Notes: generated from the sequence alone by a model not told the origin. Shown: positions 1-62,100, numbered from the stretch's first letter. The stretch is 64,000 nucleotides of DNA from Amoebophrya sp. A120 (GCA_905178155.1 CAJINV010000004.1:8145239-8209238), one strand, 5' to 3'. Made by a program: numbers and translations.

Positions 1-3000
1 TTGCAATGCATAGACCCAACGGCGAATCTGCTCGCCCCGTTACAAGAGCTGTTGGACTCGGGGAAAGTGCAGTGGCGACAGACGATCGAGGGCGAGATCT
101 GCGACCAAAGGGAGTACTTGCTGATGTCGGACGATAAAAATTCTATCACAGACGACAACCATGGCAGCAACAGCAACACCACAAAGTCTTTTTTAGAAAA
201 AAACGACAACACCTGCAATTTGGTTCAGATCCAAGACTACAAAACGTCATTGAACAAGCTCCCGACGAACCAGACCTTCGACATTTTACTTGCCGATTTC
301 CGCTACACGAACTGCGAAGAAGAGCTAGCTGTTATCGTAAGGAAAAATCCCCCCTCCCCATCTTGAAAAGAAAATTTGTGATGCTGATTTGTGACCACAA
401 ATCAGCTTTGTCTTGCGTACAAGGCAAACGGCACCCATGTGGCGCATTGGAAAGCGAGTCTGTCATCCGTTTTCGCCTATGGCAGACTTGTTTCCCATGC
501 TCATCTGCTAGCCGGGTGAGTAGTCACATGGGCTCAGAATCTGCCGGCAACCTGTTGCTGCAATACAAAGCTCATTTGTGTACACAAATCCAGCAACACA
601 AATTGTCTTTTGAATATGAGGTGGAGCTTTTTTCACTTTGATAGCCGCCCTCGCCTCCCGCTGCCACGGAGTTCTACTGCTCGCGACGCTGCATATCAAA
701 TGCAAATATGTCTGGGTCTGGAAACTTGTGATGCTAAAACGTGGATGATAGAAACAGTCCCGAATGCAACCCAGCATGACAACTTTCTAGAACGCTTTCT
801 CATAGGAAATCCGCATGAGAAACTGCGTTTTTGTATGTACAAAAGAGGCCGCGACTTTTGCTGGTTACGCAATACAGATTTCCTAGGTATCGAAAGCAAG
901 CATTACAAGTTCCAACCCTCCAGACCCAGACATATTTGCATTTGATACTGCACAAAGTCGAGCAGCTCCCCGGGTTCGAAAAGTCGGATTTGCTGGACAG
1001 CGTCCGCGCGGAGGCCCTCGGTTTTTTCACCTCCAATGGCGACCGGGAGCCGGAAAGGACGAAATCTATCAAATGCAAAAATGTCTGGGTCTGGGAGATC
1101 GCGAGACTTGTCATGCTACTCTGGCATGACACTGGAATCTGTGTTGCGTAGCCGCATAGAGCTCCTCTTCCTTGTCATGCAAAAACGCAGTTTCTCATGC
1201 GGAGGACGCAATTCAGAACCACGAAAAAACTTGTCATGCTTGGCAGCGCATTACAGCGTGCTCGCTATTCCTTTCCTTGCATCACAAGTTTCAAGACCCA
1301 GACATATTTGCAATGCATAAAGTCCCATTGGAGACGAATGCGGGCGAAGGGGGTGGCGCACTTGGAGAAGCAAACGATCCACAAACACCAGTTTTTCCGC
1401 AGTTACCTTTATCAAATGCAAATATGTCTGGTTCTGGAAGGGTGTAAGTTGTAATGCTGCATTTGGATTCCAAAAAAAATCTGTGTTGCAGGAATAGCAA
1501 AAGGGGTGCGTTTTTTGCCACGCGGAGGGAGTATTTCTCATGCAGTATGGGCATCAGAAAGCCGTCACAATATCTGTGACGCTAGGGCATGCATCACAGA
1601 CATCGCCGGTGATACAAAATGTGCATGACAAACTTCCAGACCCAGACATGTTTGCAAGGTCAGTTCAAATTTCAGTACATAGTTCCTCTCATGCTCCATG
1701 TCATAAATGCTTCCCGATAAATCGATGATCTAGTAGTACTTTACTTTATTTACCTATAGCTCATGATGATTCTTACCCGAATGCTATAATAGTTGTTAAT
1801 CTAGTTTTTAATGCGCATTTGGGGGAAGGGTCATGAACGGTAGTAGTGTCAGCGAATAGTAGTGAGCATGCACCCACGGTGTGCTATTCGCACGGCCATG
1901 GCACTACTGCGCGAGCACCCACAGGCTCCCAGGTGCCTAGCGCTTTGGCCAGCGTAGCACCTCGGTAGAGCTTGCGGGACCCCGTGGGCAGAAGTTCATA
2001 GCACCCAATTTGTACGTTGCGCAAGTGATATTATAAGTAGTAATAGTTAGTTCCACCGGTGGACATATTAGCATGCTTAATCTCTCTCTAAATAGTGCAA
2101 ACACGTAGTTCTCTTTTATTTTCTTTCTTCATAAAGTTCAAGTCGTTCTCTTCCCTGTGCTGTACCAAGGTCTTGTTTCCAGACAAAACACCAGACATGT
2201 TTGCAATGCATAACCTCTCTGTCTGGGCGAAACAAGAATTCGCGGAAACGATCAAAAAGAACTACTCCCCCACGACAGAGGACAACTTCGACAGTTTGGT
2301 TCCCGACTTTGACAATGCAAATGACGAGTTATTCCTCTCCCGCCAGGGCTCGGCGGTTTCCGATTTGTACCGGGAAAAATCCGGGATGGTATCCGGAGGA
2401 AAAACGTCCCCACCCAGAGAGTCCTCAAGCTGGGGATTTTGCAGTACGCAAACCCACAGGATTTGGCTGTCGGGCATGACAAGTTTGGGTCTCTTGTGTA
2501 GATAGTCGTGGGTGGCTAGTTCTGAGGTCACATCACAAATCTAGCTCCTTATCCTGATTAGCGCAGGAGTCCTGCGCTAAAAAACATAGGAGTCATGCAT
2601 ATTTGGGACTTTGTCCTGCGGCAGGACAAAGTCCCAAATATGCATGACAATAAATCTGGGGTGGGGACGTAGTTTTTCCCAACGATAGGTGGCTGCTGCT
2701 GTTGGTCAACAAGTGAATCACAACCAGCAAACGACCGTGTACTACCAGGACGACAGCATTCTCGCCAGCTACTACGAGTTTCACTTTGGAAAAGTCCTCC
2801 CCCTCCGCGTCCCTAACTTCCCCGCGGCGACGTCTTCCTTTTGCTTGGAAATGTGCGAGAAATACGGTTCGAAATTGAATCTCGCGATGGACGCGGGTTG
2901 CGGGCCGGGGAGGTCGGCCTTTGAACTGCTTGCCGGAACAAGGGGTGGTGGAAACAGTGGCACCAACGGGTTTGCGAAGGTGGAAGCGTTCGATTACGCG

Positions 3001-4037
3001 GAAGGGTTTGTGGACATGCTGAAGCAGGAGCAGGCGAGGCTCGGTATTCCGGAAGAAAGATTGGCATCCTACCAGGGCGACGCGCATCTGTTGGCGGAGA
3101 TCTGCAAGAACCCGTATTGGATTTTTTTTTTGCTGTAAGTTTTCGGTAGGCTTTTTGTCTTTGTCATGCAAGAATTGCATGTTGGGTCGTCTTTCTGTTG
3201 CGGGAACTCCAATACACGTAAAAAAACAGCCTCGGCACCTACGATCTAGTCTCCGGCTGCAACTTGATTGACCGATTACACGATCCAATGCAGTATTTGC
3301 AAGCGTGCAAGAAGTTGGTGAATCCTGACAAAGGACTCATCATTCACTGCTCACCGTACACCTGTTATGCAAGCAGAGGAATAGGATTTTGTACCGGACT
3401 GTCCGGTACATTAGAGTAAAGAAAGAAATTGTCCGACAATTCCTTTCTTGACTTTGTCATGCATAAAACCATCGGCTTGCGACTTTGTTATGACGCAGTG
3501 ATCCGTGATACGCATTCTGTTTTCCAAAACTTCGTGGCAAAACGCATCACAATAAGACAATTTATGACGTCTCCGAACAAAATCCTCCCTCCCGCCCCCG
3601 TCATACTCCGAAGCCCGAGCATACGGAGATCGAGAAGTGGGTCGGCGGGAAATTCACGCCCCAGATGGAGAAGTTGTTCACCGAGCAGGCGTTGCAGGAG
3701 TTTATGGAGAAGGATAACGAATTTAAGCTTGTCGAAACCCGCAAGATCCCCTTTGTCATCCCCGATACGGATGGCTCATTTCAATATCGCAAGAAAAAAC
3801 TGCTTCACTGTAAACTTGTAATGCAGAAAATGGATCTGAGAAGTATCTGTCTTGGTACATATGCAAGACAATGGATTTTCACCTGTGTTTTTCATTAGGA
3901 ATCTCGCATGGCAAATTTTCTCGGTGCTGTAGAACAAACTTGTGATGCAAAACTTGCAAAACCCTTACAGTGTAACACTTTTTCCGTGCGATATTCAATT
4001 TACGTTCTCGAACGCCACGGTTTTTCAGCGGATATAG
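1..4037 (+). CDS. OvoA-like (ovothiol biosynthesis) protein, 3' part, with two tandem SAM-dependent methyltransferase domains; 5' end lies outside the window; 8 introns
   Basis: Joined exons read ...LQELLDSGKVQWRQTIEGEI...HQFFRSYLSVW (degenerate MTase). They continue YYQDDSILASYYEFHFG..VPNFP..MDAGCGPGRSAFEL..YQGDAHLL..YDLVSGCNLIDRLHDP..SPYTW.PEHTEIEKWVGG..IPFVIPDTDGSFQFTFSNATVFQRI*, matching the OvoA C-terminal 4-mercaptohistidine N-methyltransferase. There are 7 TIR introns and one GT-AG intron (3114-3229). Confidence 0.8.
333..643. mobile_element. Introner family B
   Basis: TATCGTAAGGAAAAATCCCCC...TTTGATA; DR gctgt/gccgc; frame restored. Confidence 0.8.
694..947. mobile_element. Introner family A
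   Basis: TATCAAATGCAAATATGTCTGGGTCTGG...CCAGACCCAGACATATTTGCATTTGATA; DR ctgca/ctgca. Confidence 0.95.
1067..1319. mobile_element. Introner family A
   Basis: Family A TIRs; DR aaatc/aagtc. Confidence 0.9.
1410..2212. mobile_element. Introner family A carrying a nested 533-bp insertion
   Basis: Left TIR at 1410, right end TGCATA at 2212; DR acctt/acctc; frame restored (RSYL-SVWAKQE). Confidence 0.85.
1658..2190. mobile_element. Insertion flanked by a 16-bp duplication, inside the right TIR of an introner
   Basis: CCAGACATGTTTGCAA at 1642-1657 and again at 2191-2206. Confidence 0.65.
2390..2687. mobile_element. Introner family C (internally rearranged, with two palindromes)
   Basis: TATCCGGAGGAAAAACGTCCCCACCCAGA...TCTGGGGTGGGGACGT..GATA; DR gatgg/ggtgg. 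Confidence 0.85.
3366..3605. mobile_element. Degenerate TIR intron (singleton)
   Basis: TATG..GGATTTTGT..CGGA / TCCGAACAAAATCC..CATA; DR degenerate (cctgt/ctccg); interrupts the conserved SPYTW motif. Confidence 0.7.
3785..3993. mobile_element. Introner family F
   Basis: TATCGCAAGAAAAAACTGCTTCACTGTAA...TTACAGTGTAACACTTTTTCCGTGCGATA; DR ttcaa/ttcaa. Confidence 0.9.
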
Positions 4038-5233: not shown

Positions 5234-5255
5234 AACGTAGCCATTTTCGCCCAAG
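5234..5255 (+). other. Dinoflagellate spliced-leader-like sequence (relic or SL RNA exon)
   Basis: AACGTAGCCATTTTCGCCCAAG versus DinoSL DCCGTAGCCATTTTGGCTCAAG, 19/22 identical. Confidence 0.65.
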
Positions 5256-5283
5256 GCCCGCCAGGATTCAAGTCACAGAATCT

Positions 5284-5397
5284 CATCTATGATAGTTGCA
5301 ATCAATTTTAGTGGTATACCTAACTTAAGTACCTATCGCAGAGTCGCATCTACGATAGTTGCAATCAATTTTAGTGGTACACCTAACTTACGTACCC
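5284..5397. repeat. Tandem duplication, 63-bp period
   Basis: CATCTAYGATAGTTGCAATCAATTTTAGTGGTAYACCTAACTTA.GTACC at 5284 and 5347. Confidence 0.9.
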
Positions 5398-5582: not shown

Positions 5583-8500
5583 ATGTGTGTGCCTTTCTAT
5601 CTATACTTTGTAAGTCCTATGGCGGTAGCCGCTTCCACCGTTTATGCTTCGGCGTCGGCTTTCCCTTGGGATGATCATGGCGGTGTGGAACCAGGCGAAG
5701 CCTTCGATTGTAACGCTGCGGCTTTTGCTGCGGGGAGCGTGCTACGGGAGTATCTGGTCCGCTTCACGACCAAGTCTTCAGCATCGTCGTCCTCGTCTAC
5801 TACTACTTTGACATCTTTCCCTTTTGTACAACAACTGGGGACCAGCTCCAGGCCCGTGACGTCAACACCCTCGACCCCCACTACACAATCTTCTATCGTA
5901 AGGAAAATAATTAAATCCCCCCTCCCCATATCGCAATTTCCTGATGCTGCAATTATTGGCCCAACAGACTAGACGTTTGCCATGCTCAGCGCCTAGCCCA
6001 AAACGACCTCTCTACTCCTCAGGCTTAGTATAGGCCTTTACTACTCTCCAGCAAGGCAAAAAATTTTGCGACAACGTTATATTTAATACAACTGCTGCGT
6101 CAGCAGGAGATGAAACTTCGTTTTGATAGTACGGGTAGGGGGGAGCGGGAAAAATTTTCCTTTTGATACTACCAAGAGCAGCTACCTTGGCATTTCTATC
6201 GCAGTCGCTGCCGCCTCAGCTCGTGGACGATCTCAACAACTATCCTGATTAAGAACGTACCCACACCAGAGTCAAGATGGGATTTTTGCAACACAAACCT
6301 AGGAGTTTTGGGAGTCACGCATAACAAGTTTCAGTCCGTAAGGTAGTGCAAGTTAGCAAGGAAAGCCGCATCACAAATCGATCTGCTGATCCTGTTTACA
6401 GCATTACAAGTTCCCAAACACGCTTGAAAATGCCTGTCATGGGGTTGCGCATCACAAATGTTCCTGTCATGGCAAATCTGCATGACAACTCTGGTGTGGG
6501 TACGTTTTTACTCAGGATAACAACCGTCCCTTGTTTAGGGAAGTCGGCACCTTCGCGGACCAGGACCGGACGTCGTATGCAAATGCTGGCGCTCACCAGG
6601 ACCAGGACCTAACCTCTATCGACGACCAACTCGCAGCTGAGACACTGGTGTTGCGAATGGGTGTTCTCGTCCGAGAAAAGCTGCCGAGTGTCCTCCTGTC
6701 CGCGAAGATATGGGGAACGTCGTGGTCGGGGGTGATTATAGAAGACGACTCTACGAGTGGAGAGGCGTCGGGAGACGAGAGCAGCCGCGGCCCTCGCGGT
6801 ATCGAAAGGAAAAATCCCTGACCCTCCCCATATCAAAACGGGATTTCTGATGCTGGATTTTTTGTGTACTACACAAATCAGCTTTGTGTTTGTACTTATT
6901 GTAGAGAGGCACTGCAGCCAGATCCCCCGGCTAGGCAGGGGCGCATGGGTCTAGTTTTTCAGCATGACAAACGGCTCCCCTTTGGGCCGAACAGCATGGA
7001 AAGTCGCTCTCTTAATGGGGCGGAAGGCTTCTGCCCTTGTCTTTCTGCAAGATAAACGCGATGTGTGGCCTCAAGTCAGCGAGGCAAATTTTCGGACACG
7101 GGACTTTCAAATATGGGGAGGGGGATTTTTTCTTACGATACGCGGCTTGCCATCTTCTGCAGGTGATTACGGTTGTGCCGCCGGTAATCCCCCCTCTCCA
7201 TATCGAAAACGAAATTTGTGATACTGTATTTGCGTACACAAATAATGCTAGAAGGCCAAGAAACGCAGCTGTGGCCGCCTCGTTTGCAGACAATTTGTCA
7301 TGCTGTTTCCCACTTCCAGCTGCCCCCTGTCATGCTGAAGATGCAAGGCTTTCCAACGCTAGTAACCCACCACAGTCCGCATCTTTTCCCTTTTAGCATG
7401 ACAAAGCTGATTTGTGGCCACATATCTGCATCACAAGTTTCTAGTTTGAGACAGGTAGTTCAAGTTCGCTACGGCGGGCCGCTTTGCTGTCCCCAGAGGA
7501 GACGTACCTCGACGTCAGTAGCATCCCCGAAATGCCTTTTGAACCGTCGTGCACGCGGCTGCTACACTGTCAAGAACGCGCCCGCCAGCACACAAATCAA
7601 CAAGCCGGTCAGGTTCAGGCGGTCGCTCTGGCGACGACCACCCGCCGCCGCACCGACGAGTACGAGCGAGACGAACACATCAGCAGGAGCAACATCACGC
7701 GCTCCGTCCGGCAAGTGCAGGTGCGGCCGCACGGGCGCCCGGGTAGTAGAAGTCGAAGGCGAACAAGCCTTCGCAATTCTAAAGCGGCCTTGGCAAATGC
7801 AATGCTTCGTGAGGTTGTGAGCGTTGTCGTGGGGGACGCGTGGGCCGCACTCAGTGTTGAGGCGACCAACCCTGTAACGCTTGAGGCCGTGGTCGGTTCG
7901 GCGCGGAAGCTGCGCGCATTTCTCCGGGCGGTGGCCGCGCTGTTCTTCACGGCCGAGTGGAGAGTCTCGATGCACCGCGGGACCCAAAAACAAGAACAAG
8001 AACAACGCAACATCCTAGACGACGCAGAAGTCCTTGCAGACCGCGTGAAGGCTGACCTCCTCGGCGCTCTTGCATTCGCAGACACGACGCTCGTTTTCAA
8101 CCCCGATAACAAGCTGACGCGAGGCATCCGCGGTCCGCAGAGATGGACCGGCTCAGCCACCAGAAGCGTTGTCTGGAAATACCAAAAATTGTTGAACAGG
8201 ACAGGCTATCAAGTGCAAATATGTCTGGGTCTGGAAGGATGCATGTTTGATGTTGTCATGCTTGATATCTAGCATGACTCTTCAATCTGTCCTGCGCGTT
8301 ACTTACTTACCCAAGAGCCCCATTTTGATCTTTCTGTCATAGAGAAATGCAGTCTGTCATGCAGAATAGGCAACACCTAGAACAAGCTCAGAAACTTGTC
8401 ATGCTGGGCCAGCACTTGTGGCTTCCTCATGATAAGGACCACGACACCCAGCATCACAAGTTTATTTTCCAGACCCAGACATTTTTGCATTTGATACAGG

Positions 8501-43670: not shown

Positions 43671-43952
43671 TATTCTGAGTAAAACCGTCCCCACCCCAGA
43701 GTTGTCATGCAATTCTGCATGCGAAAAAAGGTTCTCATGCGGAGCCCTATGAGAAGCATTTTCCATTTGTGTTTTTGAATTTGTGATGCTAGAATCAGCA
43801 TGCTAAGCTAGATCTTTGATGCTTCTGAACTAGCTAAACAGGACGATAACACTACGAGGACAAACTTGTCATGCCAGACGACCAAGGCTGGCTGATTTGT
43901 CTAGCAGATTTCCCGTCTTGACTCTGGTGTGGGGACGCTTTCAATCAGGATA
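43671..43952. mobile_element. Introner family C (host gene unclear)
   Basis: Family C TIRs; DR aaggc/aaggc. Confidence 0.9.
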
Positions 43953-48300: not shown

Positions 48301-51300
48301 AAGAGGACGACAGCGACGAATTTTCTCCGCTGTCCATCAGTGGCCCCGGCGGAACGATATTGAACAATCCGCTGTTGCAGGATTTTCAGGTGATCAGCAA
48401 ATCGAGCCCGTTGCTAGATGCGCCTTCCAATAATTTCGGAGGACCAAGTGGCGGCGGCGGGGACAACAATACAACTTCGATGTTGCAGCAGCCGGGCGGA
48501 GGAATACAACAACAACCGGGTGGTAGTACGACTGGAAATTCATCTTCCACCACCTTCTCAGAGCCGTATCAAGTCGACCGACATGTCTTAGTAGATTCCG
48601 ACGTCTACAAGGATTTTTTCGCGATTGTCAGCGAGGACTTGCATTTCCAGGATATTTACACGTCTTCGGAGCTGCGACCCACCGGGAACAAAAATAAGTC
48701 GTGGAACACCTACGCGAGCAGCGCTGTCCACCAAAATACTAACCGTAGACCAACCAAAAACTCCTCCGCAGTAGAGCAGGTGTACGAATTTGGACGGGAG
48801 CACGACATTTCTCCCCCTGAGGATATCGACGATTTGAACCAGTTTAATATTTTTCTGCCCAAAACAAGCAGGAGCAACTCCGTGGTCCACCAGCTAGAGG
48901 TTCCGGGTAGTTGTAATGTGGTTCCTCGCAAAGACACCATGAATTCCACTGTAAGCGAACAGGACCAGGATATAAATTTTGCTGCGTCAAATACCAAGCG
49001 AAAAAACACACGGAGCGACTCGGTTTTTTCCACCGCTGCTGCTAGTGCGGCTGGACTACAGCAGTCCGGACTACATGAGGCTGAACAACCAGGGGCCGCT
49101 CAAGAACCGCAACCGCAGTCTGCTGGAGCATCAGCAGCACGTGGTGCCAATAGAAACAAAGCTCCCCCGCCGCCGCCGGCTTCCCAACCCAATTTGGTCG
49201 TCCGAGCGGTTTTTCCGAAACTCCTGCTCGATTACGACGGTGTCACTTTACCAGACTTCTCCAAAGCCCTCCACCTGCTTTCGGAGTTTCGCGAGCACCG
49301 GCCGTGGCGGTTTCCGAACAAGGAGTTGAATTTCGTTTTCCTCCCGTTCCCGCATTTGGGCCTCGGCGTCCACGCCGACGCAAACTACGCGGACGCGTAC
49401 GAGTACCCGACGATCTATGGAAGGAACTTCGTCTGTCTGGATTTGTCCTTCCTCTATCATTTGTAAAAACGTCCCCACCCCGTAGTTGTAATGCAATTCT
49501 GCATGCTGAAGATGTTTCTCATGTGGAGCCCCATGAGAAGCGTTTTCTAGTCGGGTTTCGGAATTTGTCATGCTCCAATTAGAGTGATATGCCGGATTTG
49601 TGATGCTAGTGAGCTAGCCAAACAGGATTACACTACGAGGCCAAACTTGTCATGCGCAACACTCATACCTTGTGGATTTGTCTAGCAGATTTCCCATCTT
49701 GACTAGGGGGTGGGAACGTTTTTACATAGGATATCCTCGGCGCCTTCTCCATCCCGGACATCGAGCACCGCAGCCACTTGTTGCACGCGTGCGTGTATGC
49801 ATTGCAATAAAACGATATCGTACTAGTATAAATTGCATTACAAATTTTGTCAAGAACAAAACTGGAGTTTGTCATGCTATATCAGGTAGAAAGTTCGATT
49901 TGTCATGCTATAGACTGCAATTACTACAGGGTGCGATACTTTTGAAGAGCCTATAGTGTGACGTACGCGTACCTGAAGCAGTTGGAGCACATAATTCCGG
50001 CGGGCTGGATCACCGCGGGACTGTATCTGTACCTGGCGGACCTGATTGAGGCGAAAATTCTCGGACGCTTGAAAATGCAGGAGCGCGTGCTCGGGCGCGT
50101 GCAGAGCAAAACCCGGAGTATTCTCCAGCTCCCCCCGGAGACCGCTTTCTACCGGGAAAACAAGCCGCCCCTCGAGAAGCCGCCGCCAAAGCACGCGCTG
50201 GGGAGTTGGAAAGACCCGCCGTTCTACGGCCGGCGGGACGCGGCGTTGATTTTTCACGAGATGTTTCGGGTGTACCAGTCACTTACAGTACAGGAACTGC
50301 TGGAGGTCGTGGAGTGTTTGGACAACGACTTCTTCGTGAACGAGGCAGACGGTGGCGGGACTGCACCTGGAGATCATGCTGCTGGCTCTTCCTCAGCAGG
50401 AGGCCCCGAAACATCCGCCGGGATCATGCCAGCCACCGGGAACTATAACCAGACCGGCAGTAGCAACTCGACCGGAAAGACGAAAGCTGGCGCCGCCAAC
50501 AGCAGCGGGTCGGCCAGTGCAGCTGGTGAACAAAATAGACGAAAAACTGCTGCCGGTTCTCCAGGAACAACTTCAGGTAGTACTGGTTCCCCGTCGCAGC
50601 TGCCCCGCTGCACGACGTCGAGTATTCAAAGACTCCTGGAACGGCACACCCAGCCTGAGCACCTCGTCTCCCCCACCTCGTTCTTGCAAATGTGGGTTTT
50701 TGGAGTCGATTTCCCAAAAGTGGACCTCCACTGGTACATGTCACCGGAAATAAACAGTAGTTCTACGAAAGGACCACCTGCCGGCATGAGGATGGATGAC
50801 AAGCAAGGCAAAGCTTCAGGCGATTTGAACGCCTTACGGAACAACGGTAACCTCCGTGGCGGGGGGACCACAAGTGGTGTTCCTGCCGCACAACAAAACC
50901 AGCCTGGGCAACAGCAGCACCGGTCCGACCCATCCACCAACCCGGAGAACAACAACAACAACAAAAACAAACGGGAGCTGCGCATCCAGATTCGCCAGAC
51001 CCCCGCCTACCGGACCGCACTCCCCGCCGGCAACGAGCTCCTGTACCGGAAAGCGTCCGTGCGGCTGCCGCTATGAAGTACAAATATGTCTGGGTCTGGA
51101 AGGGTGCGAACTTGTGATGCGCATTTCTCAACACACACAAATCTCTCATGCAGAGGCAGCAAAAGATGCCCACTTCCTGTCACCAAAATCGGGGATTTGT
51201 CATGCGGATTAGGCAATACGGAAGCTTTTCGAAATCTGTGATGCTAGGGCTTTCATGACGGACATTCTGCGTCATGCAAAAACAGCATGACAAAAAACTG

Positions 51301-54300
51301 CATTCTTCCAGACACAAACATATTTGCAATTGATAGCCGCTGCTCGAGACCCAAATCGTCCGCAAGCCGCACGACAAAGTGCCCTGGCTGCACTGGGCGG
51401 GGTATCCTGTGTAAAAACGTCCCCACCCCAGAGTTGTCATGCAAATCTGCATGCTGAGAATGTTTCTCATGCGGAGCCCCATGAGAAGCATTTGCCAGCC
51501 GTGTTTTGGAAGTTGTCATGCTCCAATCAGCATGATACACGAGTTCTGTGATGCTGCTGAGCTAGTCCAAACAGCACTCACTACATTACGAGTCCAAATG
51601 TGTCATGCAAAACAGTCAAAACTTGTGGATTTGTCTAGCCGAGTCCCCATCTTGAATATGGGGTGGGGACGTTTTTACATAGGACACGGGGGTCTGCTGC
51701 TTCGACGTTTGCAACTGCTACGGGCAGGTGATCGCGGTGGTGAAGTTTAAGTTCCCCGAAATCACGAACAGCAAGGAGGCGATCAAGCTCCGCAAGGAAT
51801 TGCAGCACGACGACACCAGCTTATATGAGCAGAGCTGCTCGTACTTTTTTGACGATAGAAACGGCATGGACAAGCGGCAAACGCCCTGCTTCATAATCCC
51901 AAAATCCATCTGGACGCAGTCCCTGCTCCGGATCTACAACCTGCCGATGGAAAGCTGGAAGCGGGCGGCGCAGTTTTCGGGAAGTTTGCGCATGGAGCAC
52001 CTGTGCGTGCAGCAGTTCCAGATCTTGAAAGCCACGCCCTGGCTGCGCAGCATCGCGAAACAGGATGTGCGCGGCCCGAGCCTGTCCGTCCGCCGTGCCG
52101 CCATTAAGGCCCTGGTCGACCTGGCCACGGTCACCGACGAACAGCGACGGACGACGGGCACGAAGAATTCCATTGCCGGGGCGGCGGCCCCCGACGTGAA
52201 CAAGTCGATCGGATTGGACGCGTATCCTATGTAAAAACGTCCCCACCCCAGAGTTGTCATGCAAATCCGCATGATCAAAATGTTTCTCATGCGGAACCCC
52301 ATGAGAGGCATTTTCTAGTCGTGTTGTGGAATTTGTGATGTTAGAGCCAGCGTGATATGCTAGATCTGTGATGCTACTGAACTAGCTAAAACAGGATCAC
52401 GCTACGAGTCCAAACTTGTCATGCTCGCCAGCCAAAACTTGGAGATTTGTGTTGCAGATTTGCCAACTTGACTGTGGGGTGGGGACGTTTTTGCTCAGGA
52501 TAACGCGCTTCTGTTGCTCAAGGGACGGTTCGGGGGCACGAAAGCTTCTGGAGGCACAAGGACGACACAGAAGGGGACCAGAAGGCCCCACTGCGGGCGG
52601 TTCGTCACAACCTTGCAGTTACTGGATTCCGTGATGAAGCGGTGCTACAAGAAGGCGTCTGACATCGCCCACGAATTTCGCACGATTCAGGCGAAGCGTA
52701 CCAGTAAGGCTGCCGCACGACAACCCGCCGGCACACTGGAGCAGCAGCAGAGGTTTGGTTCTGCCGCGGCGCTGACCCGGTTTCAGCAGCTGTATCAAAT
52801 GCAAAAATGTGTGGGTCTGGAAGAATGCAACTTGTGATGCGTATTTCAGAACACAGAACAGTCTCGCATGCATATATAGCAAATAAAGCTCCCCACTTTC
52901 TGCCAGCAAAATAGGGGACTTGTCATGCGGATTCGGCATTGCGGAAGCTTCTCGAAATCTGTGATGCTAGAGCTTCCATGCCAGACCTTCGGTGTCATGC
53001 AAAAACAGCATGACTCTTCCAGACCCAGACACTTTTGCATTTGATAAGCTGGCACGAGAAGTGATGATGCCGGCTGGCGGGGCTCTGGGGAAGTATCAAA
53101 GGTAAAAATGTCTGGGTCTGGAAGATTGCGACTTGTCATGCTAAATCCGAATCATACAAAAATCTGTGTTGCATGAGTGCCAAAAGCTGTCCACTTTCGA
53201 CCGAGTTGGGAGGGAGTTTTTCATGCAGGATAGGCATGACAGAGACGTTGCAGAGACTGTCATGCGAGGTCCCGCATTCCTGACCCCATGGGCCATGGAA
53301 AACATGCATGACAAGTTTATAATCTTCCAGACCCAGACATATTTGCAATGCATAGCAAAAAAGATAAAACGAACTCCCTCGTTCCACCTGGGCAGAACCA
53401 AATGCGAGCTGCAGTGGGCGACAAACGCAAAACAACTAGTAACGTCGCATTGTTACACCAGATGAAAAATAAATTGAAGCCGTATCAGCTGCGGCAAATG
53501 CATCCGCGACAATTGCAACTCTACTCGATGCGGACGAAGCAACTCCTCCGCCACAAGAATAAAGTGAATAAACAAACTATGGAAGCGTCAGGATTGAAAT
53601 CGTCAAAGTTGAAATAGTTTGTGATGCATAAAATGCAACCCACAAAGTGCCTGTCTTGCAGAGTACGGAAGGGAGGCAGATTGTAAGCCTGTTGAGGGGT
53701 AGAAATAGAGCTGCTAAAGTAGCATGACAAAAGGCGTCTTCCTTACCCAAACAGCACTACAAACTGGATTTAGGCACCACCAAGATTTGTCATGCGCCAC
53801 TTGAAAACTGGGCTCCAACTGGCATTCATTTTATGCATGACAAATCATTTCAACTTTGTCGATTTCGATCCTGACAGTTCCATACAAACCAAGCCGACTG
53901 GTGTGGTTCCCGAGTCGGTCATTTTCGCCCAGCTTTTGAGTAAACTCCTCCTGATGGCCAACAACCACACCGTCCACGCCGAGGTGGTGAAAGCGGCGCT
54001 CCCCGGGTTCCAAGCGCTCAGCCGCATATGTCCGAAGTTCGACTTTGCACAGTGGCTGCTGCAGGAGTATTTTTTCTTTCCGACCACCACGACTGTCGGG
54101 GGAGGCGGTGCGACAGGAGCGGGTGCTGGTATCGTTGCAACCACAACTTCTGCCACCCCGACTGCAGCGGGGGTCTCAGGTGGAGGAGCAAGTGGTACTA
54201 AAGGCTCTATCAAATGCAAAAATGTCTAGGTCTGGGAGGTTCCGACATTTGTCATGCAGTTTTTTCAAGCTCCCCCACGTCTGGAATGCAGGGCCTAGCA

Positions 54301-57300
54301 TCACAGGTCCTGCAGCTCCTTGGTGATGCGTATTCTGCATGAGAAATGCCCTCTCTGCATGGCCAGAAGTGGGCACCTTTTGCACGTTCTGCATGACAGA
54401 TCTCTGTAGGATCCGAAACACGCATCACAAGTTCGGATCCGTCCAGACCCATACATATTTGCATTTGATAGGCTCGAAAATCACACGACCGGCGTACCTG
54501 GAAGGGATCGATTCGTGTTTGACCGGTAGTAACAAACGGCAGTTGATTCAGCAAGCCGCGATCCACTACTTGAAGCGAAAAGGGGCGAGTACCTTGGAAA
54601 AGATCCTCCAGTTCAACAGCGCGTGCCTATTGTGAGGAAAAATGTCCCCTCCCCGTATTGAAAGCGCATCCATCTGAAAACTTGTGATGCAGATTTGTGA
54701 CCACAAATCGCGTCTGTCTTGCAAGAAGGCTGTCCGAAACGTTATGCAGGCGATTTGTAATGCTGTAGGGCCGACAAGGCAGCCGTCTGCCGTGCTAGGC
54801 GCCTACACCAAAAGGCCCCTACCTAGGCTTGCGATCTGCGTGCAGTGCTCTAGTGCAACACAAATTTGATTTGTGTACTCAAATACAGCATCACAGATTT
54901 CGTTTTCTATATAGGCAGGGGGGATTTTTCCTTTTGATAGTGCTGGGGCTTCCCTTTCAACCGAGCTGTGCGGAAAGTTACGGTGCTGGAGCTGCGGCGG
55001 AGCGGCGCGTTCCCGTACATTGTCACGTGGAAGAAGCAGCAGGAAGTGAAGCAGGCGAATGGAGGAGACATGAATCAGCCCGACGCGAACGATGCGGTCG
55101 GCAAGGTCTTGGCGAAAAGTGGGGCGACTTTGACGGAACTGATGGCGGCGCACAAGTCAACCCTGATACAGACATTCAGCTACCCAAGCTTACAGCAGGC
55201 GATCGTGAGCCATGGGACAAACTTCTTGCGCCAACAACCACTGGCTGTAAAGACTAGTGGTACCGTGGCATACACCAGGACGAGCAAGGCGAGGTATGTG
55301 CTTTCCTCCGGGATTGGAAGATCATCGCAGCTGTATAGGACCCAACCTCCACACGAGATGAACAAACAAGCAAACAAAGTCCACCTGATGTCGAAGTTTT
55401 CGAACCAGCAACATGCAACTACCTCAAATAGAACTACTGCATCAAACGCAACTGCGCCACCCACCACCACTATCCCACGAAGAAAACTGTTTCACTGTGA
55501 TGATTTTGCAAGGTCTGCATCACAAGTTTGTTACGCATGACAGAGAAAACTTGGCATGCGTGCTTCCTAAGGGAAAACACAGCTAAAAATCCCATGTCTT
55601 GCATGTGTAGCAAGACAAATAGTTCTGTGTTCCATTTTCTGCATCACAGGTTTACACTGAAACAGTTTTTTCTTGCGATAATCACCATTTCCTCCCTCCC
55701 GGCCCTGTACGGCAGCCAAACGAGCTATGGAAGCGTCAGGATTGAAATCGTCAAAGTTGAAATTATTTGTGATGCATAAAATCGATACCAGCTGGAAGCC
55801 CAATTTCCCAGCGGCGCATGACAAATTTCGGCACCGTCTAAAGCCAGTTTGTCATGTTGTTTAGGGACAGAAGGCGCCTTTTGTCATGCTACTTTAGCAG
55901 CTCTATTCCAACCCCGAAACAGGCTCACAACCAGCCTCATTTGCCATCCCTGCAAGAGAGGCACTTCATGCCTTGCAATTTCTGCATGAGAAATTATTTC
56001 AACTTTGAGGATTTCAATCCTGACGCTTCCATACGAGCAGTCCTGAGTACCGCCTGCAAAAATTCCTCCTCACACCCTTCACTTGGTCGGATAAGCAGAG
56101 CTTACTCTCCGAAACTTGCCTCCGGTTCGCCTTTATGCTGCACAACGTGAAAGACCGCATCGCGGACCCGCGGGAACGGAAGCAATTCGAAAATTTCCTC
56201 CAGAAAGAACTCGCCGGGAAAAACTTGTGGCTGCTGCAGGCATTGTATGAGAGTGCACAATCCCCGTCCCCCTGATTTGTCATGCAAAGTACAAAGTTGC
56301 GCCTGGCCTATAGGCACTGTCTGCATGAGAAGTTCACTGGCAGCTCAAATAGCACTACAATCCTGTGCAAATTTGTCATGCAAAACCTGTATTCTTGCTG
56401 GCGCTTGTCCTGCCGTTTATGCAATACAAATGGGGGGGAGGGGGGCTATGTGCACATTCATACGTTGAAGCTCCCGATGATGCACCAACTGAAGGAGTTC
56501 GACGCGAATAACGGGTCGTATTACCTCCAACAACCGCGGCTCCTCCCCTATCACATGCAAAAATGTCTGGGTCTGGAAACTTGTAATGCTAAAAGTGGAT
56601 GATAGCCGGACTGCAATACGCAGCCAAGCATGACAAATTTTTGAGCTGCTATGTGTTGCGTATTCCGCATGAGAAACAACGTCTTCACATGACAGATAGG
56701 AGAGCCTTTTCGTGCCCATGCATCACAGATTCTCGAGTCTGTAGTGTCAGACATGCATGACGAATGTAAGAATCTTCCAGACCCAGACATATTTGCAATC
56801 CATATTCCCTCCGGCGAGACGAATTTCGCACGGCTCGCCCAGTACCACGGTTTACCCATGCCCGAGCCAAGCTGCCTGGCGAAAGCGGCGTTGCGAAATC
56901 AGCAGAGCAAGCGCCCGCTGCTGCTCTCGTCGTCGACGAGGATGCTGAATAACCCAGAGCTGTACAACAAAGCCCAAATGACCGGGTTTACCCCGGGCAT
57001 GAACCCGGATCTACACAAAGAACCGGACAAGCAGAAGCTGGAAGAACAGGCGGCGCGCATCGCCGCGAAGTCGTGGCTCGAGAAGTGCATGAACGTGCTG
57101 GGGCACATGCGGCTGGAGGCGCCGCACGATTACAGCAAGTTTGACGTGAACGTGCTGAACCAAATCCGGTCGCAGTACGCGTCCGAAGGGCCGCAGAAGG
57201 TGGAAAAGTTCATTCAGAAGTACCAGAAGACCATCCGGCCAAACCAACCGATCGACTTGATGGAGATCCGGACGAAACTGAAAAATTCCAACCCCCGTAT

Positions 57301-58217
57301 TGTGAGGAAAACTCCCCCCTCCCCGTATACTTGACAAGGCATTATTCTGAACATTTGTGATGCAGATTTGTCGTCGCAAATCATTTCTGTCTAGTGCAAG
57401 AATGCATATGTAATTGCCTAGGCCTGCGCCGCATCATGGAGGCGATTGGTCATGCTGTTGGGCCTGCAGGGCTGGCGTAAGTACTTAGGCGCTTCCCATG
57501 CTAAACAAGGCTAGGCCACTACGCTCCCAAACAGGCCAACAGTCTGGCTGCAGTTCTTCCTTACAGCAAGACAGTCCGCATTTGTGTAGTGCGCAAATCC
57601 AGCATGAGAAATTTCGTTTTTGGTATGGGGACGGGGGGTTTTCCATTTTGATACCCCGAGCGCTGAAAACGGCGCAGACGGAAGCGGAGCACATGGTGTC
57701 GCAGCAGGGCCAGTACAATATCAAATGCAAAAATGTCTAGGGCTGGAAGATTGCCAGGTTTGTCATGCATTTTTTGCATGACGCCTGATTGTTTGTGATA
57801 TATGCCCTAGCATCACAGATTTTTAGAACCCTAATGCCTATTCCGCATGAGAAATGCCCTCTCCGCGTAACACAAACTGGAGTCCTGTTGCTGGTCATGC
57901 AATACAGACTTTTTTGGAATCCGAAGACAGCATTGCAAGTTGCAATCTTCCAGACCCAGACACTTTTGCAGTTGATATGCAAGAACGAGCTGCAATTTAA
58001 ACAGGACATCAAAATGATGTTTGAAAACTGCGATCGCTTCAACCGGGACGAGAAAAACACCTTCCGGCAGGCGGGAAAGCGACTCGAGGAGATTTTCGCC
58101 CGGCTCTGGGTAGTTTTCTTTCCACCCGTCAAGCAACATGGGAGTAGCCTGAAGATTGCGGGCGCGCCGGTGGCGAAAAAGAGGCGACCGAACTCGGAGA
58201 GCGAGTCGGAGTCATGA
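45315..58217 (+). CDS. TAF2-like (M1-aminopeptidase-fold TFIID subunit) protein with a C-terminal bromodomain; 21 TIR introns
   Basis: NFVFLP..IYGRNFVCLDLSFL, GWITAGLYLYLADLIEAKILG and SVRRAAIKALVDL resemble TAF2. YQKTIRPNQPIDLMEIRTKL..YKNELQFKQDIKMMFENCDRFN..AGKRLEEIF is a clear bromodomain. The start may be the ATG at 45411. Confidence 0.7.
45608..45869. mobile_element. Introner family A
   Basis: Family A TIRs; DR atcga/atcga. Confidence 0.95.
45949..46255. mobile_element. Introner family B
   Basis: Family B TIRs; DR aatgc/aatgc. Confidence 0.95.
46686..46937. mobile_element. Introner family A
   Basis: Family A TIRs; DR cgcag/cgcag. Confidence 0.95.
47155..47417. mobile_element. Introner family A
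   Basis: Family A TIRs; DR aagcc/aagcc. Confidence 0.95.
47951..48230. mobile_element. Introner family C
   Basis: Family C TIRs; DR cgagc/cgagc. Confidence 0.95.
49455..49733. mobile_element. Introner family C
   Basis: Family C TIRs; DR tcctc/tcctc. Confidence 0.95.
49796..49955. mobile_element. Introner family I (about 160 bp)
   Basis: TATGCATTGCAA..TACTAGTAT...CGATACTTTTG..TATA; DR gcgtg/gtgtg; similar to 61593. Confidence 0.75.
51072..51335. mobile_element. Introner family A
   Basis: Family A TIRs; DR gccgc/gccgc. Confidence 0.95.
51403..51686. mobile_element. Introner family C (right end ACA)
   Basis: Family C TIRs; DR cgggg/cgggg. Confidence 0.9.
52223..52502. mobile_element. Introner family C
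   Basis: Family C TIRs; DR acgcg/acgcg. Confidence 0.95.
52793..53046. mobile_element. Introner family A
   Basis: Family A TIRs; DR agctg/agctg. Confidence 0.95.
53094..53354. mobile_element. Introner family A
   Basis: Family A TIRs; DR ggaag/gcaaa. Confidence 0.9.
53578..53884. mobile_element. Introner family D
   Basis: TATGGAAGCGTCAGGATTGAAATCGTCAAAGTTGAAA...TTTCAACTTTG..ATCCTGAC..TCCATA; DR caaac/caaac. Confidence 0.95.
54208..54470. mobile_element. Introner family A
   Basis: Family A TIRs; DR ggctc/ggctc. Confidence 0.95.
54628..54939. mobile_element. Introner family B
   Basis: Family B TIRs; DR gtgcc/gtgct. Confidence 0.9.
55471..55680. mobile_element. Introner family F (reverse orientation to 3785)
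   Basis: Ends CAGTTTTTTCTTGCGATA; DR accac/atcac. Confidence 0.85.
55726..56033. mobile_element. Introner family D (reverse orientation to 53578)
   Basis: Family D TIRs; DR cgagc/cgagc. Confidence 0.95.
56246..56462. mobile_element. TIR intron (singleton)
   Basis: TATGAGAGTGCACAATCCCC...GGGGCTATGTGCACATTCATA; DR cattg/cgttg. Confidence 0.85.
56549..56804. mobile_element. Introner family A
   Basis: Family A TIRs; DR tcccc/ttccc. Confidence 0.9.
57298..57653. mobile_element. Introner family B
   Basis: Family B TIRs; DR ccccg/ccccg. Confidence 0.9.
57719..57977. mobile_element. Introner family A
   Basis: Family A TIRs; DR tacaa/tgcaa; inside the bromodomain. Confidence 0.95.
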
Positions 58218-58252
58218 TAGAATACCTGAGTCGGAGTCATGATAGAATACCT
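58203..58252. repeat. 25-bp tandem duplication spanning the stop codon
   Basis: GAGTCGGAGTCATGATAGAATACCT twice. Confidence 0.9.
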
Positions 58253-58390
58253 ATGTCGGTGCTGCCATTTAAGTAGGCTGGATCGCAGCTGCGCAGTACT
58301 CTCGAAGAAGGTGGCTCGTGTAGTCCTCACGTCGTGTGACCAAGATGTTGTATGCAAAGAAGCGACAGATAGTAAAAAACGCATGCTGAC

Positions 58391-58443
58391 GTTCCATCAA
58401 TACGTCGTATTGATGGAACATCAATACGTCGTATTGATGGAAC
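58391..58443. repeat. Perfect palindrome with partial tandem duplication
   Basis: GTTCCATCAATACG-T-CGTATTGATGGAAC followed by a repeat of its last 24 nt. Confidence 0.9.
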
Positions 58444-59152
58444 GAATATATTGGTTGCAGAGGCGAGAAAAACAGATGCCGTGTTCAAGAGTTTTGATTG
58501 ATGGTGAATGTTCAAACAATGTGAGTCGTTTAATACTCCATTTTGATTTTGTTCTGCGCTTTTTGGATCTAGTAATCTCTGCAGATGAAGATCCCTGTTT
58601 TTGTCGATATTAAATCTGTAAAATCATTCCGATCGCAAAATCCGGCTTCAAAGTGGGTCCAAACAAGTCCGCAAAATTATTACGTAGGCGCCGCTTTTTT
58701 CATTAAAGGCAGTACAACTACAACATCTGCGCTCTGTATTAAAAATCGCCATCAAATCCAAATAATTTACCTCCGGATGAAAAATTCAAGGCAAAAATAA
58801 AAATTTGAACACGAAAATAAGGCCCTTTTTTTCGTCTTTCCGATCCGCAAAAGACGAACAAATTTTCCTTTGGTGTTGCTGATGTAGTATTTTTAGAAGT
58901 TCAGGCGCAAAGATAAATGGCGCTTGGGCAGCAACAGCAAGTGAACCGATTTCATTTCCATTCTCTATACCCACAAAAAACAGACAGTAAACGAGCCAGG
59001 TTTACGGGAAAATAAAGATCATGGCGGGAGCTGCACGGCTGCAAAACAATAGTGAAAATTCGGTTCATGGTCGTGGTGCAAGATGTAGAATTTTGTAGAA
59101 ATTATATCATGTACCTTCAGTGATTGAGTTTTAGTTAGAAATCACTCATCCC

Positions 59153-62100
59153 ATGGACCGCCGGCGCAATTCTCCGGTCGTCCTCAAGCGACGCAGATCG
59201 CGTCGCAGAGAAGAAAGACGGGAAGACAGGGATAGCAGACCACGTACTTATTTGTTTTCATAGCAGAACTTTATCCGCAGAATTTGCCATGCACGAAATG
59301 CGTTTTAGTTGGTCTTTGTCATGGGAAAAAGAAAACTACAGGTTGTGTACAGAACGGAAACGCAGCTTCTGTTGCATGGTTTGAAAGATTCTACTAAAAA
59401 AAAACAGGTCGCCGCGACCGGTCCCGGCGCGACCGTTCCCGCCGGCGCGATGACAGGTCTCGCAGAAGGTCCCGGCGACGCCGCGGGAACAACGACAGGC
59501 GCGAGCACGAGCGATCCCGGGAACGCAGCCGCGACCGAAATAATCGGAGCCGAGCCAACAGTAAGGAGAACAGCAGAAGGGACAATAACCAAGACGAAAA
59601 CAACAACAACAGCAACCGGGACCAGCGACTCCAACCCGTCTCTCGTTCGGAAAACAACAACAACAATAACCGAGCACAGAAGAAGAAGACCAAACGCGGC
59701 GGGCAGAAGCACCGGGGAGGGCAACAGATGAAGAACGATTTTGTCGAGGGGCAGGAACTGAAAAAATTCTTCGTCACGAACAACGACTGCGCCCGGATAC
59801 TGGGGCAGAAAGCGAAAATTATGAAGGAGGTGGAGATGGAGTGCGGCGGGGACATCATGGTGCAAAACCGAAAGGACGCGGAAAAAAGCGGGTCCCAATT
59901 TCGATTCATCCAGATTATCGGACTGCCGCACCAAATCGCAAAGGCCGAGGAACTTTTCCTGCCGTGGTGCGACTACTTCGCCCGGGAGGATAACGTATTG
60001 TGACTAGGAAAGAGATTTTCAATACTTTGGTTCCAGAAATGATTTCTCATGCGAAGATTGCTAGTAGATGACTAGATTTGTTTTTGGTGCGCAGCTCACG
60101 GTGCCAAATCTTCTTCTCCATTTCCGAAGTGAATCACGTCAAAAAAAAACACCAATGCAACAGACCGTCCTGAAAGACGTGCGCGGCACGCCAGAAGCAC
60201 AGGCACGACAGAAGGAGGAGCCTGTTCGACCGCAGAAGATTCGGCTTTTCCTTGAAATTAAAAACGAGGAAATAGGCAGGATAGTGGGAAAGAGAGGGAC
60301 GCTCATTCGCGAGATGGAGGTCCTTATTATAGGCTACAGAGTTCTTTTTTGTCCACCTGGATAAAATGTTTTTATAGTTGTAATAGATGAACATTTATTC
60401 CTGTTATGCATAAATTTGGCACGACATCGATCGTCGCCACTATGTAGTTTGTGATGCGAAAATAAAATCTTGCGTCGAACAAACATTCTCGAAATCAACA
60501 GGACGAGACCAACACGAAAATCGAGATTGACAAGGGCGCCAACGTCGTGGAAATCGTCGGTGACAGCGACGGGGATTGCGAACGGGCCCAGAACAGCATT
60601 CTCCACGAGGTCTCGTGGTTATCCTGAGTAAAAACGTCCCCACCCCAGAGTTGTCATGCAAATTTGCATGCCAAAAAAGTTTCTCATGCAAGGTCCCATG
60701 AGAAGCTTTTTCTCCCCGTGTTTTGGGATTTGTGATGCTACAAATAGCATCATATGCTAGATCTGTGTTGCTGCTGAACTAGCTACTCAGGATCACACTA
60801 CGAGGACAAACTTGTCATGCGAAACAGCCAAAGTTGGCCGATTTGTCTAGCAGATTCTCCATCTTGACTCTGGTATGGGGACGCTTTTCCTCAGGATAGT
60901 GGTGCCGAAATCGCGACACCGGGGAAGTTTTGAAGCGCGACTCCTTCCCTGGGCGAGACGGAATGGACCGAGCGTATTGAAATTACAGGTTTTTTGTTCT
61001 TTATGCATCTTCTTCACAGTCTGTTGACTGGTCCTCACAACTTGTCGTGTGTACATTTGCTCGCCCGGGAGGTGGACGACGAGAGGTTGTCACAACATTG
61101 CGCCATTCTATAGTATTCTAGCGATCATAGAATTCTTCTTCTTGTTCGTCCCACCACCAGCAAAACAACCGAAAGAAAAAAAAACAGACCCTACCGTGAC
61201 GAACCCATCGTGATGCTAATTCTGGACAAAGAAGCGGGTCGGGTCATAGGCCGCGGGGGCGAGGTTATTCGGGAAATTATGGACCTATGAAATGCAAAAA
61301 TGTCTGGGTCTGGAAGGATGCAAGGTTTGTCATGCACATTTTGCATGAGCCCTGATGTCTGTGATGCATGCCCTAGCGTCACAGATTTTGTGAGGGCTTT
61401 CTGATGCCTATACCGCATGAGAAATGCCCTCTCGCAATGGAAAAAACTGGACCTCTTTTGCTGTTCATGCAATACAGATTTTTGTAGAATCCAGCTGCAG
61501 CATCACAAGTTCGCATCCGTCCAGACCCAGACATTTTTGCATTTGATAGGACCGCTCCGGAGCCGACGTTCGGGTCGAGAAGTCCGAAGCAATATGCATT
61601 GCAAAAGTATCCGATACTAGTATGAATTGCAATACAAATTTCCTCAGCATGAGAAATGAAATTCGTAATGCGGATTTAACTTGAGAAAAAAATTTGTAAT
61701 GCATGTGCATGAATGGGATCATTATTACGAGTTTCCGATACTTTTGCACAGGATAAACAATTTGTGGCGACAACGACGTGTGCCAGATCCCGCACGAACG
61801 CCGCGTCGAAGTATTTTTGGAAATTTGTAATCCTAACGCGAACTGGAAAGTGAATTTGTAATGCTAGTAGCGCAAGTCAGTAAGTATGCATAAATACGAA
61901 TGCAGTACGTGTCGCCTTAGAATGCATGACAAAGGACCCAAACTGCTCTCCTTCACACTCCAGATCTTCGGCCGGTCGCAGCGCGTCAAGGAGCACGCCC
62001 GGGACCTGATTCTCCACGAAATCGGGTTTGCAAAAGACGAAGCGGGCAACGTCATCAAGGACGATCCAGATTTCGAAGACAAGGAAAGAAAACGAAAGGG

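Follow-up and report, generated by a model that had tools for sequence, protein, structure and literature searches.

Introner elements of Amoebophrya and comparable introns

Introns bounded by inverted repeats (IRs) and direct repeats (DRs, at the element borders) are already known from the published genome of Amoebophrya sp. A120, a marine dinoflagellate with a parasitic way of life. In the account of Farhat et al. 2021 (PMC7789003), the repeated introns of A120 number 29,850, fall into 1954 families and make up 17% of the assembly, with an IR motif of TAT, seven less-conserved nucleotides and at least three As, and with DRs of 3-5 nt. The same account calls the border position 'variable' or 'unknown', gives DR/IR for 15% of the canonical introns, reports no transposase in A120 and favours copy-paste. 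Here, we analysed a 64,000-nt stretch of this genome (the window), in which 56 elements, cited below by their start coordinates, were collected (Table 1). The published A120 features were all found in it, namely the genome itself, the TAT-N7-AAA IR, DRs of 3-5 nt, removal without GT-AG ends and repeated families. A sequence-only reading of the window had held that the class is already described in Amoebophrya, which was correct and even understated, motif and genome being the published ones.

The elements resemble the A120 introners as described by Farhat et al. in IR motif, DR (5 bp in their example), length (their non-canonical introns average 240 nt) and RNA support. They differ from that description in that the cut is narrowed here to a point one base ahead of TAT on the 5' side and four bases beyond ATA on the 3' side, and in that DR identity is dispensable. 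No statement of a fixed A120 register was found among the open-access texts searched, although Figs 3 and S19-S25 of Farhat et al. may bear on it, and the new part here is the likely fixed register, a small addition to the published class. The A120 families of Gozashti et al. 2025 (PMC12130899) likewise carry terminal inverted repeats (TIRs), and their lengths of ~208, 260, 278, 305 and 320 bp match size classes found here. Most of these families are labelled 'Unknown'; family 38 is labelled 'Ginger, 5-bp TSD, TA/TA Termini' (TSD, target site duplication), with Copia/Gypsy-like open reading frames (ORFs). Family 38 is ~808 bp long with integrase-like ORF remnants, and no copy in the window was shown to belong to it.

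Nonconventional introns of Euglena, as described in PMC12501133, also lack GT-AG ends and have inverted repeats near their ends, slidable DRs and a likely origin from miniature inverted-repeat transposable elements (MITEs); their motif is staggered too, lying 3 nt from the 5' end and 5-6 nt from the 3' end. They differ in the motif (CDG/CH'G versus TAT/ATA) and in the offsets (1 and 4 here), and hybrids with canonical introns, described there as rare, are apparent in the A120 window. The Euglena signature N3CDG…CH'GN5-6|R was not found in the present elements, and the likeness is one of analogy only. In Fritillaria borealis (PMC11282704, PMC13326754), MITE-derived non-canonical introns are attributed to an adapted U2 spliceosome; preferred ends (AG-AC, AG-AT) and U1 are kept in these descriptions, whereas the ends here are free except for U at +2. 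In its treatment of splicing, a 2024 review limits the explanation to a hypothetical new subunit.

Removal from transcript-like contigs and the position of the cut

Four sets of transcript-like contigs, all of the same sample and given the flag 'RNA?', were aligned to positions 1-8190, where ten of the 56 elements lie. A joint was seen at seven elements, all in the gene of protein P0001, which we take to be OvoA-like from its FGE-sulfatase-like and methyltransferase domains. All seven joints skip the element plus 5 nt, each in 2-4 of the four runs: 330>647 (element 333, 3/4 runs), 688>948 (694, 3/4), 1064>1323 (1067, 2/4), 1404>2213 (1410, 2/4, the whole 808 nt removed), 2386>2690 (2390, 3/4), 3364>3610 (3366, 4/4, with no ambiguous letter) and 3779>3994 (3785, 3/4). 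At an eighth element (6800), removal is supported by a loose contig end of 13 nt identical to downstream exon sequence, elements 5894 and 6241 have no contig cover or joint, and at elements 54208 and 54628 a skip of the element plus 5 nt follows from contig piece arithmetic (run X3, record 13). No second joint form is listed for any element. The public A120 models remove six of the seven elements in the OvoA-like gene and all five in the next gene (P0003). The P0001 model keeps the last element (3785) and hence has a wrong end; the contigs splice this element, which gives an end in agreement with the ortholog. Joints and models together support the earlier proposal that the elements act as non-canonical introns.

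GT..AG was found in equivalent registers in none of the 52 copies tested and GC..AG in three, and a frame-keeping GT-AG pair lies somewhere nearby in 22 of the 52. At element 2390, an in-frame GT..AG one base outside each end was ignored, three runs cutting at +5. With each element plus 5 nt removed, the pieces join into one frame of 2394 aa across 21 elements, one of 972 aa across 5 and one of 911 aa across 6, and the longest frame is at most 691 aa when the element plus 0, 1, 3, 4, 6 or 7 nt is removed. The frame is restored by taking out the element and one DR, as had been claimed. Offsets of +2 and +8 preserve the same frame as +5, so RNA data are needed for the offset.

The elements are retained in DNA-like contigs. 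A DNA-like run (its kind is not on record) covers 30 of 30 bins of 42000-61999, and its contigs cross 17 element-flank junctions unbroken at a depth of 38-44 in the 8 pieces listed (this alignment has 20,614 further pieces, and 764 joints beyond the 15 listed); one contig contains the whole of element 57298..57653. Excision from DNA, in the manner of the internal eliminated sequences of ciliates, would make the 'spliced' contigs somatic DNA, and the RNA nature of runs X3-X6 is a guess. Moreover, the junction evidence comes from the pieces listed and contigs drop rare forms, so rare excision could escape. Against this stand the unbroken junctions and the transcript-like contigs themselves, which also skip the canonical GT..AG intron 3114-3229 and leave bins 4915-6279 without depth, as mRNA would. 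We regard DNA excision as extremely improbable, and the check proposed earlier for it disfavours it. Short contigs inside elements reach a depth of 236 (bin 547-819) and 2.19 (bin 1912-2184); they may stem from other loci, retained introns or DNA. Two 2026 RNA runs with the same species label (X9 and X10) gave almost nothing on the locus, namely 5 and 2 partial reads on 42000-61999, which fall in bins holding family A or C elements.

The register, defined as the number of upstream DR bases retained, is informative where the two DR copies differ. It is exact at element 3366 ({4}) and bounded at seven further copies, with {3,4} at 333, {3-5} at 1067, {0-4} at 1410, {2-5} at 2390, {0-4} at 54628 (downstream position 5 kept, by contig piece arithmetic), {2-5} at 55471 (the piece ends at 55467, upstream position 2 kept) and {2-5} at 57719 (the piece starts at 57980, downstream position 2 not kept). 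The sole value common to all eight is 4, which places the cut likely one base upstream of TAT and four bases downstream of ATA and would give an intron of the form N-TAT…ATA-NNNN. Matching DRs are not needed, because element 3366, with one of five DR positions in agreement, was removed precisely in 4/4 runs. From the triplet frequencies of the window, the chance of TAT and ATA both standing at given offsets is ~1e-4, before allowing for the few registers acceptable. At register 4 the donor reads N-T-A-T with C19 G17 A10 T8 at +1 among 54 copies, the last four bases of the acceptor are unconstrained, and the GT/GC donor and AG acceptor of U2-type introns were not found.

We lean slightly towards a splicing code set by position (N|N-TAT…ATA-N4|N), with the cut reckoned from the terminal triplets. 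Such a code would need neither GT, AG nor matching repeats and would override an adjacent in-frame GT-AG; it would make each integrase-like, TA-ended MITE insertion, in either orientation, a scarless intron, and decayed copies would drift to GT-AG via a G-TAT donor. Several observations weigh against a fixed position. The exact register comes from a single decayed singleton (3366), the joint contigs stem from one sample with the 'RNA?' flag at a depth of 2.9-10.6, and contigs lose minor splice forms. In public annotations of A120 family 2, 6681 of 9716 introns start N-T and 6598 end A-N. Likewise, all nine top A120 motifs in Table S4 of Farhat et al. (PMC7789003) start N-T and eight end A-N, and the legend of their Fig. 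3 calls the border position variable. The N-T/A-N symmetry mirrors registers 4 and 1. On such grounds the cut could float within the DR, as Farhat et al. saw it, and the fixed 1+4 offset would be a small-sample coincidence. We consider this unlikely, as register 4 is common to all eight informative copies, six of which exclude register 1 and four register 5, and no second joint form is listed. The symmetry probably arises from aligners choosing half-canonical positions within slidable repeats; we set the public splice-site spectra aside as a register test because of their mirror symmetry.

Census, origin and host genes of the elements

A strict scan for TAT…ATA ends, an exact 5-bp DR and a 20-nt inverted repeat with at least 13/20 identity gave 31 matches in the window and 0 in 30 shuffles. 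With the terminal letters left free (blind scan), 36 matches were obtained versus 0-4 in five shuffles; 28 of the 36 have TAT at both ends and 3 further ones are one-letter variants. Relaxed DRs, family matches and one copy exposed by a transcript joint completed the curated list, which comprises families A (26), C (11), B (8), D (3), F (2) and I (2) and four singletons. The earlier total was also 56, with the same numbers for A, B, C, F and I; it differed in having two D copies and five singletons. The elements are 160-803 nt long (median 263) and occupy 24% of the window.

The shared termini noted before were confirmed, TAT…ATA being exact in 53 of 56 elements and TAT present at 109 of 112 ends; a single end, in element 51403, reads TGT. 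DR copies agree at 5/5 positions in 35 elements, 4/5 in 15, 3/5 in three, 2/5 in one and 1/5 in two. The 5-bp DRs of the sequence-only reading thus stood in 50 of 56 elements at 4/5 or better, and failed at 5894-6168, which lacks a DR. Among 53 copies, exact border repeats have length 5 in 35, length 3 in one and length 2 in seven, and lengths 4 and 6-9 in none. The DRs show no fixed sequence and no base preference. Mismatches at positions 1-5 number 5, 10, 5, 1 and 7 in 55 copies, small numbers that were given no statistics and not used as evidence, and that hint at conservation of position 4.

The IR motif TAT-N7-AAA has 63 forward and 68 reverse matches, versus shuffle means of 14.9 and 12.7; its A run is missing in family F and some singletons. 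The motif TTGT[CGA]ATGC or its reverse complement is present in every family, with 121 of 145 window matches inside elements (shuffle mean 1.9), mostly pointing inward and 30-55 nt from the element end. The families are hence not wholly unrelated, and the former statement that their TIR cores are unrelated was overstated. Weak TIR candidates, for example at 16042, 26859, 35696, 41561, 42446, 58737 and 59820, were at chance level and not counted. Elements occur at about one per ~1 kb, except for 8 kb (11842-19960) without any. This stretch holds a 71%-identical direct repeat (16036-16449 versus 18324-18709), short inverted repeats at ~12.0-12.7 kb and three ORFs without a Pfam match.

Table 1 Elements and related introns in the window (scans as described in the text)
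Position	Strand	Feature	Direct repeat	Evidence and remarks
333..643	+	family B	GCTGT/GCCGC	relaxed scan, transcript joint
694..947	+	family A	CTGCA	strict scan, transcript joint
1067..1319	+	family A	AAATC/AAGTC	relaxed scan, transcript joint
1410..2212	+	family A, 803 nt, internal insert	ACCTT/ACCTC	relaxed scan, transcript joint
2390..2687	+	family C	GATGG/GGTGG	transcript joint; in-frame GT..AG pair (element+2) unused
3114..3229	+	canonical GT..AG intron, starts G-TAT		joint 3113>3230, 4/4 runs
3366..3605	+	singleton	CCTGT/CTCCG, decayed	transcript joint
3785..3993	+	family D	TTCAA	strict scan, transcript joint
5894..6168	+	family B, degenerate	none (TCTTC/CTACC)	family match; no contig cover
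6241..6519	+	family C	ACAAC	strict scan
6800..7140	+	family B	CGCGG	strict scan, 13-nt contig loose end
7184..7454	+	remnant of family B lacking termini; GT..AG intron predicted		frame fits; not among the 56
8207..8496	+	family A	CAGGC	strict scan; removed in public model P0003
9004..9291	+	family C	AGTGC	strict scan; removed in P0003
9351..9610	+	family A	ACTCC	strict scan; removed in P0003
10051..10380	+	family B	GGAAG/AGAAG	relaxed scan; removed in P0003
10476..10763	+	family C	TGGGC	3' end ATT; blind scan; removed in P0003
20071..20338	+	family A, in P2X YDTA^K	CGCGA	5' end TAA; blind scan
20568..20828	+	family A, in P2X gene	CCGGG	strict scan
23375..23699	+	family B	GCCAT	strict scan
23940..24112	+	singleton	TCAGT/CCCGA, decayed	relaxed scan
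24921..25235	+	family A	TACCA	strict scan
29053..29305	+	family A	CCACA	strict scan; in 911-aa joined frame
29652..29913	+	family A	AAACA	strict scan
30001..30263	+	family A	GCTCA	strict scan
30701..30979	+	family A	TGCCT/CGCCT	relaxed scan
31214..31442	+	singleton	GAAGT	strict scan
31504..31763	+	family A	CTGGG	strict scan
36147..36400	+	family A	TAGTG/GAGTG	relaxed scan
40159..40411	+	family A	CTCCG/TCCCG	relaxed scan
40502..40793	+	family C	GTTCT	strict scan
41137..41346	+	family D	TCCAG/TCAAG	relaxed scan
42063..42317	+	family A	ATGGG/ATGGC	relaxed scan
43671..43952	+	family C	AAGGC	strict scan
45608..45869	+	family A	ATCGA	strict scan; first of 21 in 2394-aa joined frame
45949..46255	+	family B	AATGC	strict scan
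46686..46937	+	family A	CGCAG	strict scan
47155..47417	+	family A	AAGCC	strict scan
47951..48230	+	family C	CGAGC	strict scan
49455..49733	+	family C	TCCTC	strict scan; absent from protein P0007
49796..49955	+	family I	GCGTG/GTGTG	family match; absent from protein P0007
51072..51335	+	family A	GCCGC	strict scan; absent from protein P0004
51403..51686	+	family C	CGGGG	3' end ACA; blind scan; absent from P0004
52223..52502	+	family C	ACGCG	strict scan
52793..53046	+	family A	AGCTG	strict scan
53094..53354	+	family A	GGAAG/GCAAA	relaxed scan
53578..53884	+	family F	CAAAC	strict scan
54208..54470	+	family A	GGCTC	strict scan; contig piece arithmetic = element+5
54628..54939	+	family B	GTGCC/GTGCT	relaxed scan; contig piece arithmetic = element+5
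55471..55680	+	family D	ACCAC/ATCAC	relaxed scan; contig piece ends 55467
55726..56033	+	family F	CGAGC	strict scan
56246..56462	+	singleton	CATTG/CGTTG	relaxed scan
56549..56804	+	family A	TCCCC/TTCCC	relaxed scan
57298..57653	+	family B, bromodomain-like region	CCCCG	strict scan; whole in one DNA-like contig
57719..57977	+	family A, bromodomain-like region	TACAA/TGCAA	relaxed scan; contig piece starts 57980
60620..60898	+	family C	GTGGT	strict scan
61286..61548	+	family A, in KH domain	GGACC	strict scan
61593..61755	+	family I, in KH domain	AGCAA/AACAA	relaxed scan
61812..61896	+	85-nt decayed-element candidate	CGAAG/CGAAT	not among the 56

The elements have the properties of MITEs: they carry TIRs and a TSD of fixed length, are short and ORF-free, and stand in either orientation. 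Six repeated families occur in the window; the best pairwise identity within family A is 91%, and, judged by a single reference, 9 of its copies point one way and 8 the other, in genes of the same strand. Even in the 803-nt copy, the longest stop-to-stop frame wholly inside is 76 aa, the window holds no long element, and a Pfam search of 26 exon or ORF pieces found no transposase family. In this copy (1410-2212), an unrelated insert of ~550 nt (1659-2190) interrupts the family A 3' TIR; it is flanked by a repeated ~16-nt piece of the TIR, has no other copy in the window and holds no long ORF. The removed length at this element (808 nt) equals the published length of family 38; its reading as an integrase-bearing family 38 copy was rejected as being without support, there being no long ORF.

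Comparable superfamilies are Ginger2/TDD and GingerRoot (PMC2836005, PMC6839031), for which these sources describe TIRs, 5-bp TSDs in TDD-4/5, and TA…TA ends with GC-rich targets in GingerRoot (72 of 77 with TA…TA ends in PMC6839031). The differences lie in the Ginger ends TGTNR and the 6-bp TSD of GingerRoot, as given there. In the window, TAT at 109 of 112 ends departs from the TGTNR termini of Ginger1/Ginger2, the 5-bp TSD agrees only with TDD among Ginger elements (4 bp; 5 bp in TDD-4/5), and the TA…TA termini of GingerRoot are present with 0/53 exact 6-bp repeats. Membership in Ginger or GingerRoot is not claimed, because either the termini or the TSD length fail. The earlier remark that no superfamily matches is partly answered by the label of family 38 and by the TA…TA ends of GingerRoot, the TSD of the latter being 6 bp.

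That the elements are non-autonomous DNA transposons moved in trans, as proposed before, is plausible given their TIRs, 5-bp DRs and orientations (9:8); the report of Farhat et al. of no A120 transposase stands on the other side. The latter, the copy-paste favoured by the same authors and the non-LTR labels of some A120 families would suit spread via an RNA intermediate, by reverse splicing or retro-copying. Such a route is improbable in our judgement, since family A occurs in both orientations within same-strand genes and the uniform 5-bp DR without base preference, together with the TIRs, points to a staggered DNA cut.

All host frames lie on the + strand, and joined + frames of at least 140 aa hold 47 of 54 elements. 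The 2394-aa frame (45294-58214) has a weak bromodomain match at its end, and its closest relative found is P0005 (1211 aa), a distant one. The P2X, KH and methyltransferase domains were supported by a Pfam search. The interruptions described by the sequence-only reading were recovered in P2X YDTA^K (element 20071), in OvoA-like SPYTW^K (3366) and in the KH domain (61286 and 61593); for the bromodomain, two exon pieces match successive profile parts weakly (E 0.087 and 0.00084, neither reaching the Pfam cut-off). Identity to A120 proteins is 100% for exon 2692-3111 (P0001) and for exon 8502-9002 (P0003). P0001 has 1872 aa, its C-terminus being encoded in window 1-4037, and a 51%-identical ortholog, P0002, is uninterrupted across SPYT-WKPEH and FFRS-YLS, a protein-level comparison with a distant sequence. 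The second gene (~5577-11841), whose public model P0003 starts at 7532, is barely covered by transcript-like contigs. A P2X-receptor-like gene lies at 19962-22118 of this parasitic dinoflagellate, and a search for P2X homologues among longer proteins gave no match.

Probable decayed elements, splicing machinery and implications

Some GT-AG introns of the window resemble decayed elements. In intron 3114-3229, 7 nt of the start recur as an exact inverted copy (3208-3214) 15 nt from the end; the intron also holds the shared motif and is likely a decayed element by origin. Judging from sequence, the degenerate family B copies at 7184 and 5894, the latter with GTAAG inside its 5' TIR and no DR, could now be using GT..AG. 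The 61812-61896 candidate can alternatively be read as the start of a predicted GT..AG intron (61811-61963), both readings keeping the frame; the predicted introns at 61811 and 7184 may be hybrids like 3114-3229. The predicted GT..AG introns at ~21460-21856, ~23757-23890 and 61811-61963 contain the motif TTGT(C/G)ATGC, which suggests either that decayed elements make up many of the canonical introns here or that the motif serves as a splicing signal. Several of the 24 motif matches outside elements lie in predicted or shown GT-AG introns. With its G-TAT start and IR relic, intron 3114-3229 fits one machinery for both kinds of intron.

The A120 introner elements are probably miniature DNA transposons that a relaxed U2 spliceosome cuts from pre-mRNA with a fixed 1+4 offset. 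Their insertion in either orientation, with duplication of 5 bp, would be due to a Ginger/GingerRoot-like transposase that is related to integrases and works in trans; the elements would then stay in the DNA, as seen in the DNA-like contigs. Removal of the element plus 5 nt, observed at 7 joints and at two more elements by piece arithmetic, restores the pre-insertion coding sequence. The intron would be N-TAT…ATA-NNNN, a form fixed exactly by one copy, limited to positions 3-4 by a second and compatible with all eight informative ones. A relaxed U2-type spliceosome would read an N-U-A-U donor (U+2, A+3, U+4, with +1 free), and would set the 3' cut at a distance counted from the terminal AUA, with TIR pairing as an aid and no need of AG. 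Such a spliceosome is proposed because of the apparent hybrids, a near-complete A120 spliceosome in which Farhat et al. report U1 as not detected (PMC7789003), and a preference for U at +4, which the tunicate paper links to lower U6 m6A.

In the main alternative, which keeps the elements and the register, a separate, non-spliceosomal machinery, either an endonuclease with a ligase or a dedicated complex, might instead recognise the TIR ends when paired, in line with the proposal for Euglena. The free +1 and last two intron bases, the in-frame GT..AG ignored at 2390 and the undetected U1 agree with it, as do the distinct factors proposed for the analogous staggered code of Euglena (N3CDG…CH'GN5-6) and a predicted mean TIR pairing above 0.5 in 43 of 53 copies. 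We nevertheless find it doubtful in view of the apparent G-TAT/AG hybrids (3114-3229 shown by RNA, 61811 and 7184 predicted), the 15% of A120 canonical introns with DR/IR, and the weak predicted terminal pairing at 3366 (0.14-0.17) and 2390 (0 at positions 1-8), both precisely spliced. Weak pairing at these two copies also counts against the pairing aid assumed for the relaxed U2 spliceosome; because of them a hairpin is not shown as required, and the terminal triplets may work through their sequence in addition to structure.

For these published elements, Farhat et al. did not manage to fix where the borders lie. The fixed offset, if true, would provide a defined substrate for minigenes and for lariat or circle tests, making the question of their splicing directly testable, and would allow rule-based annotation of A120 genes, in parallel with the independently reached code of Euglena. 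Insertions would be harmless in both orientations, because as much sequence as one DR would go with the element each time. In addition, the shared internal motif and the TA ends leave a narrower field in which to look for the missing transposase.

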